From: Escherichia phage teqhal
DNA length: 64,000 bases
Sequence record: MN895435.1
Direction: 5' to 3' (one strand)
Shown here: one piece after another, positions 2,875-62,703 of the stretch
Layout: every line of letters starts with the position of its first letter
How positions within the stretch are numbered: the stretch's first letter is position 1
Position numbers and translations under genes: made by a program
The notes under the pieces: generated by a model
Told to the model about the DNA's origin: nothing
Databases searched by the model: none
Seen by the model: only the letters and a program-made list of their open reading frames with translations

Positions 2875-3135
2875 ATGAAATATATTAATCGTTCTATCGC
2901 AGCATTAGTATTAGCAGTGTCTTTAGTAGGATGTACTGATGCTGATAATGCAACTAAAGTTTTGTCTTCAAGTGGTTTTACTAATATTGAAATCACTGGA
3001 TATAACTGGTTCGGTTGCTCTGAAAATGATTTCCAACATACTGGATTTCGTGCTATTGGACCTACCGGGCAGAAAGTAGAAGGAACAGTATGTTCTGGGC
3101 TGTTCTTTAAGGATTCAACTATTCGTTTTAAATAA
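2875..3135 (+). CDS. putative lipoprotein, 86 aa
   Basis: Signal peptide followed by lipobox LVGC (MKYINRSIAALVLAVSLVGCTD); followed by a hairpin. Confidence 0.5.
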   Translation: MKYINRSIAALVLAVSLVGCTDADNATKVLSSSGFTNIEITGYNWFGCSENDFQHTGFRAIGPTGQKVEGTVCSGLFFKDSTIRFK

Positions 3136-3136
3136 A

Positions 3137-3153
3137 AGGCCTTCGGGCCTTTA
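3137..3153 (+). terminator. UUCG-loop hairpin after the lipoprotein ORF (weak terminator or RNA stability element)
   Basis: aggcc-ttcg-ggcct stem-loop followed by TT. Confidence 0.35.
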
Positions 3154-7479: not shown

Positions 7480-8418
7480 ATGTACAATATTAAATGCCTG
7501 ACCAAAAACGAACAATCTGAAATTGTTAAATTGTATTCAAGTGGTAATTACACCCAACAGGAATTGGCTGATTGGCAAGGTGTATCGGTTGACACAATCC
7601 GTCGTGTTTTGAAAAATGCTGAAGAAGCTAAACGCTCTAAAGTTACTATTAGCGGTGATATTACAGTTAAAGTTAATAGCGATGCAGTTATTGCTCCAGT
7701 TGCTAAATCTGACATTATTTGGAATGCATCTAAAAAATTCATTTCAATTACTGTTGACGGTGTAACTTATAACGCAACTCCTAATACTCATTCAAACTTC
7801 CAGGAAATTCTTAATCTGCTTGTAGCGGATAAGCTGGAAGAAGCTGCACAAAAAATTAATGTTCGCCGTGCTGTTGAAAAATATATTTCCGGCGATGTTC
7901 GAATTGAAGGTGGAAGCTTGTTCTATCAAAATATCGAATTGCGGTCTGGTTTGGTTGATCGTATTCTTGACTCGATGGAAAAAGGCGAAAACTTTGAATT
8001 TTATTTTCCGTTCTTGGAAAATCTGCTGGAAAACCCAAGCCAAAAAGCGGTATCTCGACTCTTTGATTTCTTGGTAGCAAACGATATTGAAATTACAGAA
8101 GATGGTTACTTCTATGCTTGGAAAGTAGTTCGCAGCAATTACTTTGACTGTCACTCAAACACCTTTGATAACAGTCCGGGTAAAGTAGTTAAAATGCCGC
8201 GTACTCGTGTGAATGACGATGATACACAAACTTGTTCTCGTGGTCTGCATGTGTGTTCTAAATCTTATATTCGTCACTTCGGTGGTTCAACCAGCCGAGT
8301 TGTAAAAGTTAAAGTACATCCACGCGATGTAGTATCAATTCCGATTGATTACAACGATGCTAAAATGCGTACCTGCCAATACGAAGTAGTTGAAGACGTT
8401 ACTGAACAATTTAAATAA
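7480..8418 (+). CDS. rIIB: rIIB protein
   Basis: 312 aa, the T4 rIIB length; immediately downstream of rIIA. Confidence 0.85.
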   Translation: MYNIKCLTKNEQSEIVKLYSSGNYTQQELADWQGVSVDTIRRVLKNAEEAKRSKVTISGDITVKVNSDAVIAPVAKSDIIWNASKKFISITVDGVTYNATPNTHSNFQEILNLLVADKLEEAAQKINVRRAVEKYISGDVRIEGGSLFYQNIELRSGLVDRILDSMEKGENFEFYFPFLENLLENPSQKAVSRLFDFLVANDIEITEDGYFYAWKVVRSNYFDCHSNTFDNSPGKVVKMPRTRVNDDDTQTCSRGLHVCSKSYIRHFGGSTSRVVKVKVHPRDVVSIPIDYNDAKMRTCQYEVVEDVTEQFK

Positions 8419-8432
8419 GGGCTTCGGCCCTT
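8419..8432 (+). other. UUCG tetraloop hairpin just after the rIIB stop
   Basis: gggc-ttcg-gccc. Confidence 0.4.
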
Positions 8433-8446
8433 AACTAAGGAAAATT

Positions 8447-8641: not shown

Positions 8642-8645
8642 ATAA

Positions 8646-8666
8646 GGGCTTCGGCCCTTTTGTTTT
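8646..8666 (+). terminator. rho-independent terminator
   Basis: gggc-ttcg-gccc hairpin followed by TTTTGTTTT. Confidence 0.6.
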
Positions 8667-11040: not shown

Positions 11041-11120
11041 TGAGTAATTTCCACAACGAACACGTGATGCAGTTCTATCGTAATAATCTTAAAACTAAAG
11101 GCGTCTTCGGACGCCAGTGA
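11040..11120 (+). CDS. stp: Stp peptide (26 aa; modulates the host EcoprrI/PrrC anticodon-nuclease system)
   Basis: [26 protein letters not shown]; ATG overlaps the ndd stop (TAATG); not in ORF track because under 60 aa. Confidence 0.8.
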
Positions 11121-16442: not shown

Positions 16443-17228
16443 TTATACTCTTGAACCATATATTGTACCAACCTTAGTCCAAGTTGGAGCATTACCAGTA
16501 ACAGCTTTACCGGCCGCGCCGCCGTTATATTCTGATCCTTGCCCACGAATATTACATTTACCACCTGCGGCACCAGCATCACCGCCATTCCCGCCATTAT
16601 AGATACCATTGACAGACCCTTTACCAGGTGCAGAAATAGTACCAGCAGTAGCGCCCTGTTCCATATTAGCAGACCCGCCAGCAGCACCAAATGGACGACC
16701 GCCGCCACCGCCAAAAGTCAATTTCATTTGTGAAAAAGGAGAATAATATCCGCCTCCACCGCCGCCACCGCCTCCTGCGATAACACCATTGTTGTTAATA
16801 CGCAATCTAGTTCCAATTCCATTATTTATTGCAGTTCCTCCTGCTCCACCGGCAGAGTTATTTCCGCCATTCCCGCCACGGCCCCAAACATGCACTCCTG
16901 AATTGATATTAAGTGTCACGTATGCATTAGTTAATGAGCTAGGAAAATCTAAGCATGGAACACCAGTAGATTGAGAAACAATATTTCCTGTAATAGTAAT
17001 AACAACAGGAGTACTGCCTTGGGCTTTTATCCAGTTTATTAATGTATCTTTATTATAAGAATTACTAGCACCAATGCTATAATATACTTCTTTAGATTGT
17101 CCGGCCATTGAGCTCATCCAACCGGGAACTGAAACACGGACTGCTCTCATTGCAGCATCCATCCAACGTTGTCCAGTTTCATTCACGGCAGATTCACCAA
17201 TCCAGCCAGGAACACCTACAATTGCCAT
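16443..17228 (-). CDS. 38: gp38 receptor-recognising tail-fibre adhesin, T2 type
   Basis: 261 aa; C-terminal half has several glycine-rich runs (GGGGGGGGGYY, FGGGGGRPFGAAGG, NGGNGGDAGAAGG) separated by variable segments; downstream of gene 37. Confidence 0.8.
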   Translation of the reverse strand: MAIVGVPGWIGESAVNETGQRWMDAAMRAVRVSVPGWMSSMAGQSKEVYYSIGASNSYNKDTLINWIKAQGSTPVVITITGNIVSQSTGVPCLDFPSSLTNAYVTLNINSGVHVWGRGGNGGNNSAGGAGGTAINNGIGTRLRINNNGVIAGGGGGGGGGYYSPFSQMKLTFGGGGGRPFGAAGGSANMEQGATAGTISAPGKGSVNGIYNGGNGGDAGAAGGKCNIRGQGSEYNGGAAGKAVTGNAPTWTKVGTIYGSRV

Positions 17229-17240
17229 TAAAAATCCTTA

Positions 17241-17256
17241 GAGGGCCGAAGCCCTC
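17241..17256 (-). other. intercistronic UUCG hairpin between genes 37 and 38
   Basis: gagggc-ttcg-gccctc on the - strand, just after the gene 37 stop and before the gene 38 RBS. Confidence 0.5.
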
Positions 17257-17258
17257 TT

Positions 17259-30421: not shown

Positions 30422-30465
30422 TTATCAAGGGGCTATCAAGCCCCTATTAAAATGAGGAAACCGTA

Positions 30466-33804: not shown

Positions 33805-34084
33805 ATACAAATCCGACTTTGATGTTAATATTCACCGCGGTACATTTTGGGGAAATTACGTCGGTAAAGATGCTGGCAGCCGGGAGGCTGCCATTGAATT
33901 ATTCAAAAAAGATTTTATACGTCGAATTAAATCCGGAGAAATAACTAAAGCACATTTAGAGCCTTTACGTGGAATGAGGCTAGGATGCACATGTAAACCA
34001 AAGCCGTGTCATGGTGATATAATAGCTCATATAGTTAACCGATTGTTTAAAGACGATTTTCAAGTTGAGGACTTATGCAATTAA
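33758..34084 (+). CDS. hypothetical protein, 108 aa
   Basis: ORF overlapping upstream gene by 47 nt; start uncertain. Confidence 0.4.
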
Positions 34085-36339
34085 TTAATGTTATCAAAAG
34101 TAGTGGTGTTTCTCAGAGCTTTGACCCACAAAAAATTATTAAAGTTTTATCTTGGGCAGCTGAAGGAACATCGGTAGATCCTTATGAATTATATGAAAAT
34201 ATTAAATCTTATCTCCGTGATGGAATGACAACTGATGATATTCAGACTATTGTCATTAAGGCCGCTGCGAATTCTATTTCGGTTGAAGAGCCTGATTATC
34301 AATATGTAGCTGCACGTTGTCTAATGTTCGCTCTTCGTAAGCATGTTTATGGGCAGTATGAACCACGTTCATTTATTGACCATATTTCTTACTGTGTAAA
34401 TGAAGGTAAATACGACCCTGAATTATTGTCAAAATATTCAGCAGAAGAAATTACATTTTTAGAATCAAAAATTAAGCACGAGCGGGATATGGAATTTACT
34501 TATTCCGGGGCGATGCAATTAAAAGAAAAATATCTAGTTAAAGATAAAACCACTGGTCAAATTTATGAAACTCCACAGTTTGCATTTATGACTATTGGAA
34601 TGGCATTGCATCAAGATGAACCTGTTGATAGATTAAAACACGTTATCCGTTTTTATGAAGCAGTATCTACTCGACAGATTTCATTGCCAACTCCTATTAT
34701 GGCTGGTTGCCGTACTCCGACTCGACAGTTTAGTTCATGTGTTGTTATTGAGGCAGGTGATTCATTAAAGTCTATCAATAAGGCTTCCGCTTCAATTGTT
34801 GAATATATCTCTAAACGCGCTGGAATTGGTATTAACGTTGGTATGATTCGTGCTGAAGGTTCTAAGATTGGCATGGGTGAAGTACGCCATACCGGTGTTA
34901 TTCCTTTTTGGAAACATTTTCAGACTGCTGTTAAATCATGCTCACAGGGTGGAATTCGTGGCGGCGCTGCTACTGCTTATTATCCTATTTGGCATTTGGA
35001 AGTTGAAAATCTTCTCGTTTTGAAAAATAACAAAGGTGTAGAAGAAAACCGCATTCGTCATATGGATTATGGTGTTCAACTGAATGATCTAATGATGGAA
35101 CGTTTTGGAAAGAACGATTACATTACTTTGTTCAGTCCACATGAAATGGGTGGAGAGCTTTATTATTCTTATTTTAAAGACCAAGACCGTTTCCGTGAAT
35201 TATACGAAGCAGCAGAAAAAGACCCTAATATTCGTAAAAAGCGCATTAAAGCCCGTGAACTATTTGAATTGCTCATGACTGAACGCTCAGGAACAGCAAG
35301 GATTTATGTGCAGTTCATTGATAATACGAATAACTATACTCCGTTTATTCGTGAAAAGGCACCTATTCGTCAGAGTAACTTGTGCTGTGAAATTGCTATT
35401 CCAACAAATGATGTGAATAGCCCTGATGCTGAAATTGGATTGTGCACGTTATCTGCATTTGTGTTGGATAACTTCGATTGGCAAGACCAAGATAAAATTA
35501 ATGAATTAGCAGAAGTTCAAGTTCGTGCTCTTGATAATCTTTTGGATTACCAAGGATATCCAGTTCCTGAAGCAGAAAAAGCTAAAAAGCGTCGAAACCT
35601 TGGTGTAGGTGTTACTAACTATGCAGCTTGGCTGGCAAGTAACTTTGCTTCTTATGAAGATGCTAACGATTTAACACATGAACTATTTGAGAGATTACAG
35701 TATGGACTCATTAAAGCATCCATTAAGCTCGCCAAAGAAAAAGGACCTTGTGAATATTATTCAGACACTCGTTGGTCTCGAGGCGAATTACCTATCGACT
35801 GGTACAATAAAAAGATTGACCAAATCGCAGCTCCAAAATACGTTTGTGACTGGTCGTCGCTGCGGGAAGACCTTAAGCTCTTTGGCATCCGTAATAGCAC
35901 ATTATCAGCACTTATGCCATGTGAGTCATCTTCCCAAGTTTCTAACAGTACAAACGGTATCGAGCCTCCACGTGGACCAGTCTCTGTTAAAGAATCAAAA
36001 GAGGGCTCCTTTAATCAAGTCGTGCCCAATATTGAGCATAACATAGACCTCTATGATTATACATGGAAATTAGCTAAGAAAGGTAATAAACCTTATCTTA
36101 CGCAGGTAGCTATTATGCTGAAATGGGTATGTCAATCAGCTTCAGCGAATACATATTATGACCCACAGATTTTTCCAAAAGGAAAGGTTCCAATGTCAAT
36201 AATGATTGATGACCTTTTGTATTTTTGGTATTTTGGCGGAAAAAATTTCTATTATCATAATACCCGTGATGGTTCTGGTACTGATGATTATGAAATAGAA
36301 ACTCCAAAAGCTGAAGATTGTTCATCCTGTAAATTATGA
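34075..36339 (+). CDS. nrdA: ribonucleoside-diphosphate reductase large subunit
   Basis: 754 aa, the T4 NrdA length; class I RNR large-subunit sequence. Confidence 0.9.
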   Translation: MQLINVIKSSGVSQSFDPQKIIKVLSWAAEGTSVDPYELYENIKSYLRDGMTTDDIQTIVIKAAANSISVEEPDYQYVAARCLMFALRKHVYGQYEPRSFIDHISYCVNEGKYDPELLSKYSAEEITFLESKIKHERDMEFTYSGAMQLKEKYLVKDKTTGQIYETPQFAFMTIGMALHQDEPVDRLKHVIRFYEAVSTRQISLPTPIMAGCRTPTRQFSSCVVIEAGDSLKSINKASASIVEYISKRAGIGINVGMIRAEGSKIGMGEVRHTGVIPFWKHFQTAVKSCSQGGIRGGAATAYYPIWHLEVENLLVLKNNKGVEENRIRHMDYGVQLNDLMMERFGKNDYITLFSPHEMGGELYYSYFKDQDRFRELYEAAEKDPNIRKKRIKARELFELLMTERSGTARIYVQFIDNTNNYTPFIREKAPIRQSNLCCEIAIPTNDVNSPDAEIGLCTLSAFVLDNFDWQDQDKINELAEVQVRALDNLLDYQGYPVPEAEKAKKRRNLGVGVTNYAAWLASNFASYEDANDLTHELFERLQYGLIKASIKLAKEKGPCEYYSDTRWSRGELPIDWYNKKIDQIAAPKYVCDWSSLREDLKLFGIRNSTLSALMPCESSSQVSNSTNGIEPPRGPVSVKESKEGSFNQVVPNIEHNIDLYDYTWKLAKKGNKPYLTQVAIMLKWVCQSASANTYYDPQIFPKGKVPMSIMIDDLLYFWYFGGKNFYYHNTRDGSGTDDYEIETPKAEDCSSCKL

Positions 36340-36390
36340 TATAATTTGACTCACGGACGAGTCACCAACTATTAACTAAGCGGAAAATTT

Positions 36391-37569
36391 ATGAGCACAG
36401 TTTTTAATACAAATCCAGTTGATGTTTTAAAAGAACCTATGTTTTTTGGTTCAGGTCTTGGTATTGCGCGTTATGATATTCAACGCCATAAAGTTTTTGA
36501 AGATTTAACCGAAAAGCAATTATCATTTTTCTGGCGTCCTGAAGAAGTAAACTTAATGATGGATGCTGCACAGTTTAATAAGATTCCTCAGTATCAGCAA
36601 AATATTTTTACTAATAATCTGAAGTATCAATCACTTTTGGATAGCATTCAGGGTCGTGCGCCGTCTGCTGTACTTATGTCATTAATTTCAGACCCAAGCC
36701 TTGATACATGGGTTGCTACGTGGACTTTTAGTGAAACTATTCACTCTCGTTCATATACACATATCATGCGAAATCTTTATACTGATCCATCGAAGGTATT
36801 TGATGAGATTGTATTAGATGAAGCTATTATGAAACGTGCTGAATCCATTGGACGTTATTATGATGATGTTCTGACTAAAACTCGTTATTGGGAAAACGCT
36901 AAAGCTGATATCGAATACCAAAAAGAAATTAATGCAGACGAAGATGTTATTGAAGATGCTATTGAGCATGAGACATATTGGAAGCGTGAGCTAATGAAAT
37001 CTCTTTACCTCTGTTTGCATGTAATCAACGCATTGGAAGCTATTCGTTTTTATGTATCTTTCGCATGTACCTTTAACTTCCATAAGAACATGGAAATTAT
37101 GGAAGGCAATGCAAAGATTATGAAGTTCATTGCACGTGATGAGCAGCTTCATCTTAAAGGTACACAATATATTATTCGTCAACTTCAATCTGGTACTGAT
37201 GGCGATGAATGGGTTAAAATTGCTCAAGAGTGTGAACAAGAAGCAGTTGATATTTTCATGGAAGTTAACCGCCAAGAAAAAGATTGGGCAGTTCATTTAT
37301 TTAAAGATGGCGATGTTCCTGGATTAAATACAAATAGCATGTGGAGCTTTATTGATTACTTAACTGTATCTCGTATGAAACAGTGTGGTCTTCCATGCCC
37401 AATTACCGATGCTCCGGTTAAACATCCATATCCTTGGATTCGTGAATATCTTAATTCTGATAATGTTCAATCCGCGCCACAAGAAGTAGAACTGTCATCT
37501 TATCTTGTTGCACAGATTGATAATGATGTTGATGATAAAGTTATGATGAGTTTTAAAAAATACTTTTAA
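36391..37569 (+). CDS. nrdB: ribonucleoside-diphosphate reductase small subunit, uninterrupted
   Basis: 392 aa continuous ORF; R2-like di-iron ligand spacing. Confidence 0.9.
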   Translation: MSTVFNTNPVDVLKEPMFFGSGLGIARYDIQRHKVFEDLTEKQLSFFWRPEEVNLMMDAAQFNKIPQYQQNIFTNNLKYQSLLDSIQGRAPSAVLMSLISDPSLDTWVATWTFSETIHSRSYTHIMRNLYTDPSKVFDEIVLDEAIMKRAESIGRYYDDVLTKTRYWENAKADIEYQKEINADEDVIEDAIEHETYWKRELMKSLYLCLHVINALEAIRFYVSFACTFNFHKNMEIMEGNAKIMKFIARDEQLHLKGTQYIIRQLQSGTDGDEWVKIAQECEQEAVDIFMEVNRQEKDWAVHLFKDGDVPGLNTNSMWSFIDYLTVSRMKQCGLPCPITDAPVKHPYPWIREYLNSDNVQSAPQEVELSSYLVAQIDNDVDDKVMMSFKKYF

Positions 37570-37574
37570 GGAGT

Positions 37575-37590
37575 GGGCCGCAAGGCCCAT
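37575..37590 (+). promoter_or_regulatory. hairpin between the Shine-Dalgarno sequence and start codon of denA
   Basis: AAGGAG at 37568..37573, then gggcc-gcaa-ggccc hairpin, then ATG at 37597; linear SD-ATG spacing about 24 nt. Confidence 0.45.
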
Positions 37591-37596
37591 TTTATT

Positions 37597-39184
<1,588 letters not shown>

Positions 39185-46875: not shown

Positions 46876-46916
46876 AATAAAATGAGGGGCTTTGGCCCCT
46901 TACTGAGGAAAATGTT

Positions 46917-61678: not shown

Positions 61679-62305
61679 ATGTATGAATACAAATTTGACG
61701 TGAGAGTTGGTTCTAAAATAATCAACTGTCGCGCATTTACTCTTAAAGAATATCTAGAACTTATTACTGCTAAAAAGAACGGTTCAGTAGAAGAGATCGT
61801 TAAAAAGCTAATTAAAGACTGTACAAATGCAAAAGATTTAAACCGCCAAGAATCAGAACTATTGTTGATTCATTTATGGGCGCATTCTCTTGGAGAAGTT
61901 AATCATGAAAACTCCTGGAAGTGCACCTGCGGAACTGAAATACCAACCCATATAAATCTATTACATACACAAATAGATGCACCAGAAGACCTCTGGTATA
62001 CACTGGGTGACATTAAAATTAAATTCCGATACCCTAAAATTTTTGATGATAAAAATATAGCCCACATGATAGTATCATGTATAGAAACGATTCACGCTAA
62101 CGGGGAAAGCATTCCAGTTGAAGACTTAAATGAAAAAGAGTTGGAAGATTTATATTCTATCATCACAGAGTCAGATATTGTAGCTATAAAAGATATGCTT
62201 TTAAAGCCTACTGTTTATTTGGCTGTTCCAATTAAGTGTCCAGAGTGTGGAAAAACTCACGCTCATGTAATAAGAGGGCTCAAAGAATTCTTTGAGCTAT
62301 TGTAA
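61679..62305 (+). CDS. 26: baseplate hub subunit gp26
   Basis: 208 aa, the T4 gp26 length; Cys motifs CTCGTE ... CPECGK. Confidence 0.8.
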
Positions 62306-62703
62306 TGGCAAATATTAATAAGCTTTATTCTGACATTGACCCAGAAATGAAAATGGATTGGGACAAAGATGTTTCAAGATCTCTTGGATTAAGGTCAATT
62401 AAAAATAGCCTTTTAGGAATTATTACAACCAGGAAAGGGTCAAGGCCATTTGACCCAGAATTTGGATGCGATTTATCTGATCAGCTTTTTGAGAATATGA
62501 CTCCTCTTACTGCTGATACTGTTGAGCGTAACATTGAAAGCGCAGTAAGAAACTACGAGCCACGTATTGATAAATTAGCAGTTAATGTAATACCGGTTTA
62601 TGATGATTATACTCTAATAGTAGAAATACGCTTTTCAGTCATCGATAACCCTGATGATATTGAGCAGATAAAACTGCAACTGGCTTCTAGTAACAGAGTA
62701 TAA
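62305..62703 (+). CDS. 25: baseplate wedge protein gp25
   Basis: 132 aa, the T4 gp25 length; TAATG overlap with gene 26. Confidence 0.85.
   Translation: MANINKLYSDIDPEMKMDWDKDVSRSLGLRSIKNSLLGIITTRKGSRPFDPEFGCDLSDQLFENMTPLTADTVERNIESAVRNYEPRIDKLAVNVIPVYDDYTLIVEIRFSVIDNPDDIEQIKLQLASSNRV

Follow-up and report, generated by a model that had tools for sequence, protein, structure and literature searches.

How is translation of denA, the gene for endonuclease II (an enzyme that cuts host DNA), initiated in Escherichia phage teqhal? In the stretch of 64,000 nucleotides (nt) analysed here (sequence record MN895435.1, below called the window), the Shine-Dalgarno (SD) sequence of this gene overlaps the stop codon of the upstream gene nrdB and is separated from the denA ATG at 37597 by a stable hairpin. 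We interpret the nrdB-denA junction as a split (non-contiguous) ribosome-binding site (RBS) of the type described for T4 genes 25 and 38, built round a leaky terminator-type hairpin, and give this interpretation a probability of about 0.55. Every feature of a split RBS that is accessible to computation is found at the predicted denA site.

The gene upstream of denA is nrdB (36391..37569, plus strand), which encodes the small subunit of ribonucleotide reductase according to the list of open reading frames (ORFs) and the annotation of homologous records. Its stop codon TAA (37567-37569, plus strand, read directly) is itself part of the denA SD, UAAGGAG (37567..37573, plus strand; AAGGAG = 37568-37573), a 7-nt perfect complement of the 3' end of the 16S rRNA with a duplex energy of -8.0 kcal/mol. 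The SD directly adjoins the 5' base of a 16-nt hairpin, UGGGCC-GCAA-GGCCCA (37574..37589, plus strand), which is supported by its fold, by covariation and by its terminator score. The stem arms GGGCC (37575-37579) and GGCCC (37584-37588) enclose the GNRA tetraloop GCAA (37580-37583), and the pair U37574-A37589 extends the stem to 6 base pairs (bp). With five G-C pairs and one U-A pair the structure has the GC-rich stem-loop of an intrinsic terminator. It is followed by a U-rich tail of 7 nt, UUUUAUU (37590..37596, plus strand), that is without SD potential and possibly serves as a terminator U-tract, and then by the conserved ATG (37597-37599) of denA (37597..38007, plus strand), which encodes an endonuclease II of the GIY-YIG family with 136 amino acids (aa). 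From the last base of the SD to the A of the ATG the linear distance is 23 nt; it is 7 nt once the hairpin is looped out. Minus its hairpin the junction reads TAAGGAG-N7-ATG, a contiguous design shared by 7 further ORF starts of the window.

The isolated 16-nt hairpin folds at -11.6 kcal/mol. In its 71-nt context the minimum free energy (MFE) is -18.0 kcal/mol (z = -3.3), and none of 200 shuffled sequences is as stable. A preliminary description of this DNA had proposed RNA folding as a check, and the hairpin is indeed stable and non-random. The positions that it gave for AAGGAG and for a gggcc-gcaa-ggccc hairpin before the denA ATG are correct on direct reading, and it was right to see a long gap, the exact length of which is 23 nt rather than about 24 nt. 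It was silent on the overlap of the SD with the nrdB stop, on the terminator-like combination of hairpin and U-run, and on the GTG start at 37573 in the T4 RefSeq annotation.

This GTG (37573..37575, plus strand) is in frame with denA and is the annotated start, for a protein of 144 aa, in T4 RefSeq and in T4T; it is probably not the functional start. Both NC_000866.4 and HM137666.1 give a 435-nt denA from the GTG (position 137949-137951 in NC_000866.4), and in several related genomes denA is annotated from the ATG. An in-frame upstream start is found in three lineage groups only (Tequatrovirus, Dhakavirus and one Serratia phage); elsewhere the frame upstream of the ATG is closed or contains no start codon. 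Counted from the ATG, every genus compared keeps the N-terminus MK(E/D)IA, and the construct of PDB entry 2WSH as well as the residue numbering of E118 follow the 136-aa ATG form of DenA. Since the first base of the GTG is the last base of the SD, the spacing between the two is zero. We reject the GTG as the true start on the basis of its non-conservation and this zero spacing: judged from these comparisons, the start of denA is ATG 37597 (136 aa), and the GTG start (144 aa) of the T4 reference annotation is probably wrong. Use of an alternative in-frame start had been named in advance as an observation that would speak against a split site; with the ATG as the start, and the GTG not conserved, this objection is removed.

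The layout of the junction is conserved far beyond the closest relatives of the phage. Junctions drawn from annotated phage genomes and viral contigs fall into 24 distinct versions, which represent at least 10 genera of Tevenvirinae (Tequatro-, Mosig-, Dhaka-, Gelderland-, Winkler-, Gapriver-, Jiaoda-, Karam- and Roskildevirus, and others). All but one phage share a common plan: an AAGG-type SD over the nrdB stop, a GC hairpin 0-1 nt further on, an SD-free tail of 6-9 nt, and the ATG. The loop is almost always C(UUCG)G; it is GCAA or GUAA in Tequatrovirus, with the GUAA variant in lineage L021. Stems vary among lineages and include GGGCC/GGCCC, GGGAC/GUCCC, GGGGC/GCCCC, GGGAGAC/GUCUCCC and GAGGGC/GCCCUC, among others. 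Across the 24 junctions the 6-bp stem is 95.1% paired, and four of its six pairs exhibit compensatory double changes (25 cells). The observed values are reached in 0 of 500 shuffles, and the signal has a sharp maximum at register 0 and collapses in slid registers. RNAalifold predicts this stem alone as the consensus structure and leaves the SD and the AUG unpaired. Among the sampled members of ~500 close relatives, the stretch from TAA to ATG does not vary.

Spacing and anti-SD pairing follow the same pattern in all 24 lineages. Upstream of the hairpin the anti-SD duplex amounts to -1.7 to -8.1 kcal/mol, and in the tail it is never better than -0.1 kcal/mol; UAAGGAG is the sole stretch upstream of the denA AUG with anti-SD complementarity, with no alternative SD at functional distance in any of these lineages. 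The spacing between SD and AUG is 22-27 nt when counted linearly and 6-9 nt with the hairpin excised, the latter inside the range of ~5-11 nt expected for a split RBS. Compared with a limit of ~15 nt, the SD is thus too distant for normal initiation, here (23 nt) as well as in the other lineages.

We also scanned both strands of the window for the layout itself, defined as an SD, a stable hairpin within 0-3 nt, an SD-free tail of 4-10 nt and an ATG, with dinucleotide-shuffled windows as control. The scan returns 5 sites, versus a mean of 0.11 per shuffled window. Two of the five are true gene starts, namely denA and gene 25. The remaining ones are not gene starts: ATG 30452 lies inside an SD, ATG 62466 inside gene 25, and ATG 45996 (minus strand) on the reverse strand of a terminator. 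A further candidate for a second split RBS, the hairpin at 3135-3152, was rejected, as ATG 3158 opens an ORF of 5 codons and the true gene (~3202) has its own SD.

The recovery of gene 25 provides the closest known counterpart. Its split RBS (62274..62307, plus strand) consists of GAGG (62274-62277), a 20-nt hairpin (62278-62297), the tail UAUUGUA (62298-62304) and the AUG at 62305, where an ORF for gp25 (MANINKLY...) begins. The split RBS at the junction of genes 26 and 25 was described by Nivinskas et al. (1999) and Malys and Nivinskas (2009), as summarised in a review (PMC3014915), according to which its function is proven by mutagenesis and dimethyl sulphate (DMS) probing. As in denA, the SD of gene 25 abuts the 5' base of the stem, the tail has 7 nt, the linear spacing is over-long (27 nt versus 23 nt) and no alternative SD is present; likewise, T-even relatives keep the layout and distant T4-like phages lack it. 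The two sites also differ. The ORF of gene 26 (61679-62305) reads through SD and hairpin and ends in UAAUG over the start of gene 25, whereas nrdB stops ahead of the hairpin, within the SD. In gene 25 the stem is rich in A and U, with 8 bp, an AAUU loop, a folding energy of -9.8 kcal/mol and a terminator score d of -31, whereas that of denA is rich in G and C, with a tetraloop of the GNRA or UUCG type, a U-run and d = +24.7 (the score is defined below). A further difference is that the denA arrangement extends over at least 10 genera of Tevenvirinae. Finally, bridging is experimentally established for gene 25 and predicted for denA.

The second counterpart is T4 gene 38 (Gold 1988, as reported in PMC3014915), which follows the same principle: a hairpin between SD and AUG restores the spacing. 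The linear and folded distances given in that review are 22 and 5 nt for gene 38 and 27 and 11 nt for gene 25 (PMC3014915). These two genes bear out the earlier remark that T4 uses the device at a few genes. The window itself contains a T2-type gene 38, encoding a glycine-rich gp38 of 261 aa (16443-17258, minus strand), and its junction with gene 37 consists of a C(UUCG)G hairpin followed by AAGGA-N6-AUG. As the hairpin here lies upstream of a normal SD, the split RBS of gene 38 known from T4 textbooks is absent from this phage.

The order of elements at denA is not that of the tetraloop hairpins in general. Some 8 further tetraloop hairpins between genes of the window, among them the one at the gene 37-38 junction, precede their SD, which makes the denA order a specific, retained exception. 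Intercistronic hairpins with C(UUCG)G or GNRA tetraloops were reportedly noted in T4 by Tuerk and colleagues in 1988. The denA hairpin shares with them a short GC stem and an extra-stable tetraloop just past a stop codon; it differs from the others in the window in that the SD comes before and a U-run after it, whereas these have the SD after the hairpin and usually no U-run. The split RBS of E. coli thrS (Sacerdot et al. 1998, as cited in PMC7297116) has a hairpin that interrupts the RBS. In thrS this hairpin precedes an SD of normal spacing and acts as a repressor operator, with no SD-AUG bridging, unlike the predicted arrangement at denA.

Taken as a split RBS, the junction would work as follows. 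nrdB and denA would be co-transcribed, with some transcripts ending at the hairpin and U-run, which would act as a leaky attenuator. On the read-through RNA the 16-nt hairpin would fold and protrude from the 30S subunit, which would accommodate it in the folded state. The fold would thereby shorten the distance between UAAGGAG and the denA AUG from 23 to ~7 nt, allowing SD-directed initiation at ATG 37597. We infer that translation of denA depends on folding of the hairpin, and that part of transcription stops there. As to the earlier suggestion that the hairpin restores a functional spacing, its geometrical part holds (7 nt in this phage, the covariation, the match to gene 25); bridging on the ribosome is what these data lead us to expect.

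Several observations weigh against this interpretation. One lineage, L042 (IMGVR_UViG_2974786931_000001, ~560-605), is without SD, hairpin and tail, and the nrdB TGA overlaps the denA ATG (ttATGA); the element has been lost there as a unit, and hence is dispensable and can be replaced by direct coupling. In L047, L048 and 92A1 the SD is weak (-1.7 to -2.4 kcal/mol). The conserved short tail could in part reflect mere compactness of the junction. In the phage studied here the MFE structure has a longer stem, in which GGAG pairs weakly with the U-run, and CUUUUA with part of the AUG; this would occlude the site. In the literature searched we found no reporter assay, toeprint, probing or 3'-end map for denA; neither did the search return any mention of denA translation or of an nrdB terminator, though older papers may contain an earlier remark.

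Among the alternatives, the one that survives best takes the hairpin to be an intrinsic terminator, an attenuator or a stabiliser of the nrdA-nrdB 3' end, with its position between SD and AUG incidental and no benefit from bridging; a low level of denA would then come from read-through RNA via SD-independent or coupled initiation. We consider this unlikely, yet it has real support. A GC-rich stem with a stable tetraloop is followed by UUUUAUU, and by the discriminant of d'Aubenton-Carafa, for which we used current energy parameters and allowed only Watson-Crick pairs in the stem, the denA hairpin scores d = +24.7, the third highest value in the window. Two obvious terminators score +36 and +41, and the mobE-internal terminator, for which 30-50% termination was measured in T4 (Wilson and Edgell 2009, PMC2790892), scores -27. 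Across lineages the tail is biased towards U (63%, compared to 34% in 49 ordinary SD-ATG spacers), and three related genomes, MK327945.1 and NC_054924.1 among them, annotate exactly this hairpin as a putative transcriptional terminator. In the Krischvirus E26 (L013, ~345-400) denA lies behind a different upstream gene and is preceded by a terminator-like hairpin, GGCGGGA-GAAA-UCCCGCC, with a U-run and then a conventional SD (GAGGAAAGGA). The fact that a hairpin precedes denA together with a normal SD in this RB49-like group indicates that the hairpin before denA is older than the split arrangement.

Most lineages that retain hairpin and geometry are nevertheless poor terminators by this measure. 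The median of d over the 24 lineages is -12; the score exceeds zero in 7 and is negative in 17 of them, down to -38 in L047 and L048 (2 U in 8) and -43 in Mosigvirus, and all lineages with negative d keep hairpin, SD and spacing. A consensus scan made no terminator call at the hairpin, possibly an artefact of the stem extending into the U-run. Neither denA nor rnlA, the gene that follows it, has an evident promoter of its own: a sigma-70 consensus scan of the terminal ~300 nt of nrdB and of the stretch between the hairpin and denA/rnlA returns no promoter-like site, with MotA-box and late motifs assessed by eye only. In most genera denA and rnlA overlap by 4 nt (~808-814 in L004-L008), and hence both genes need read-through past the hairpin. 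From the overlap and the lack of a promoter-like site it follows that any termination at the denA hairpin must be partial. In Tequatrovirus the two genes are ~52 nt apart (38008-38059), so the downstream coupling of denA and rnlA differs among genera. A terminator alone also leaves unexplained why the SD is kept upstream and none is found downstream, and why the effective spacing is fixed at 6-9 nt. Given the negative d in 17 of 24 lineages, the lack of a promoter, the need for read-through and the SD upstream of the stem, termination is not the whole story; partial termination is, by sequence criteria, a probable additional function of the hairpin, which would make it a leaky terminator.

The mobE-internal terminator offers a parallel for such a function. 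This weak intrinsic terminator of the T4 nrd region, too, combines a hairpin with a short U-tract, lies in the same transcription unit and, by terminating partially, adjusts the dosage of a nuclease gene further downstream (PMC2790892). Unlike the denA hairpin, the mobE element is embedded in coding sequence and plays no part in an RBS; termination at denA is a prediction. In time-resolved omics data of T4, denA RNA is classified as "middle" and RNA of the flanking genes nrdB and rnlA as "early", and the DenA protein is detected (PMC9697503 supplements). The discordance between denA and its flanks (PMC9697503) could reflect attenuation at the hairpin or mere classification thresholds, the classes being too coarse for an estimate of read-through.

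A further alternative turns the effect of the hairpin round. The hairpin would repress denA, and DenA, a potentially toxic nuclease, would be made only via ribosomes that end at the nrdB UAA, melt the hairpin and reinitiate 27 nt downstream. The location of the nrdB stop within the SD, 4 nt ahead of the stem, fits this scheme: by the geometry of the ribosome footprint, a ribosome terminating so close to the stem would have to unwind the hairpin. In the MFE structure of this phage GGAG is paired with UUUU, and the UG of the AUG with UA. L042, Aeromonas phages and Slopekvirus use overlap or adjacency of stop and start at denA, which makes coupling of denA to the upstream ORF a recurrent solution in L042 and the distant T4-like phages. 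The occluding extension, however, is weak, adding about -6 kcal/mol to the core, differs between lineages and is missing from the consensus fold. A conserved extended helix that occludes both SD and AUG was considered as a candidate structure and dropped, being unsupported in the per-lineage folds as well as in the consensus fold. Moreover, a purely repressive hairpin needs neither a conserved SD on its 5' side nor an effective spacing of 6-9 nt, and the identical layout at gene 25 enhances translation (PMC3014915). Obligatory coupling of this kind seems to us rather improbable, and coupling to nrdB translation may act at denA as an alternative or as an added layer.

A split RBS and coupling can be combined in a single scheme, in which one hairpin serves three steps: it would attenuate transcription after nrdB, be melted by the ribosome at the nrdB UAA, and refold behind this ribosome to hand an SD-tethered 30S subunit to the denA AUG. 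This scheme is speculative, and we would not expect it to hold in full. If it did, the junction would represent a termination-reinitiation split RBS conserved throughout the Tevenvirinae, and the dose of DenA would be a fixed fraction of NrdB synthesis.

Two other explanations can be dealt with briefly. The GGAG of the SD could be a site of the endoribonuclease RegB, with the hairpin modulating or protecting from cleavage or stabilising a processed 5' end. RegB cleaves GGAG/U in the SDs of early genes, and secondary structure protects (PMC3014915); GGAG is present in the SD, and denA acts in the prereplicative period. Against this, the 3' context GGAGUGGGCCG mismatches the strong-site consensus GGAGRAYARAA (PMC3014915), GGAG is replaced by GGAC, GGAA, GGUA or GGAU in other genera, and the conservation of the spacing is left unexplained, so that we regard a RegB site as very improbable. 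Scarcely credible is a start of denA at GTG 37573, by which the hairpin would become coding and the long gap between SD and start would vanish: the annotation in NC_000866.4 and HM137666.1, and the location of the GTG 3 nt past the nrdB stop, where reinitiation is conceivable, are opposed by its zero spacing from the SD, an upstream in-frame start in only three lineage groups, a stem that evolves via RNA-style compensatory changes and not by amino-acid conservation, the conservation of MK(E/D)IA from the ATG, and the use of the 136-aa form in the biochemical and structural literature.

If the nrdB-denA junction is indeed a split RBS, several consequences follow. The natural split sites with the order SD, hairpin, AUG that are regularly cited are those of T4 genes 38 and 25 only, and denA would be the third. 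A third case would add weight to the view that ribosomes can routinely make room for a folded hairpin between SD helix and P site. The denA lineages would provide a natural series of stems (5-7 bp; UUCG, GNRA and UUUG loops; tails of 6-9 nt) from which the geometric limits of such sites could be read, and the series would be useful for predictors of RBS strength, which now heavily penalise split sites. Finally, a terminator-type hairpin within an RBS would be a compact means of adjusting how much of a nuclease is made in relation to the upstream gene.

We note some further features of the junction and its surroundings. An Rfam search of the denA junction gives no family match, only sub-threshold chance hits; the match to L20_leader (37478-37604, plus strand) reaches 24.7 bits versus a gathering score of 58.7, with E = 0.03 in a small search, and is taken as chance. 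Short GC hairpins, mostly with UUCG loops, directly follow a stop codon and precede the SD of the next gene by 1-10 nt at 8416-8433, 8644-8659, 11100-11115, 30428-30445 and 46885-46900 on the plus strand; hairpins of the same kind, after a stop and before the SD of the next gene, are found at 17257-17240 and 63915-63900 on the minus strand. Most members of this family are without a U-tract and have negative terminator scores; they may have roles in RNA stability, insulation or presentation of the SD. The window as a whole is Tequatrovirus (T4-type) DNA and corresponds to the reverse complement of the standard T4 map. A comparison of 34075-37569 with T4 (L001, 1-2770) shows that, unlike in T4, nrdB is uninterrupted here, with no group I intron or I-TevIII, and that mobE and nrdB.1 are absent between nrdA and nrdB.

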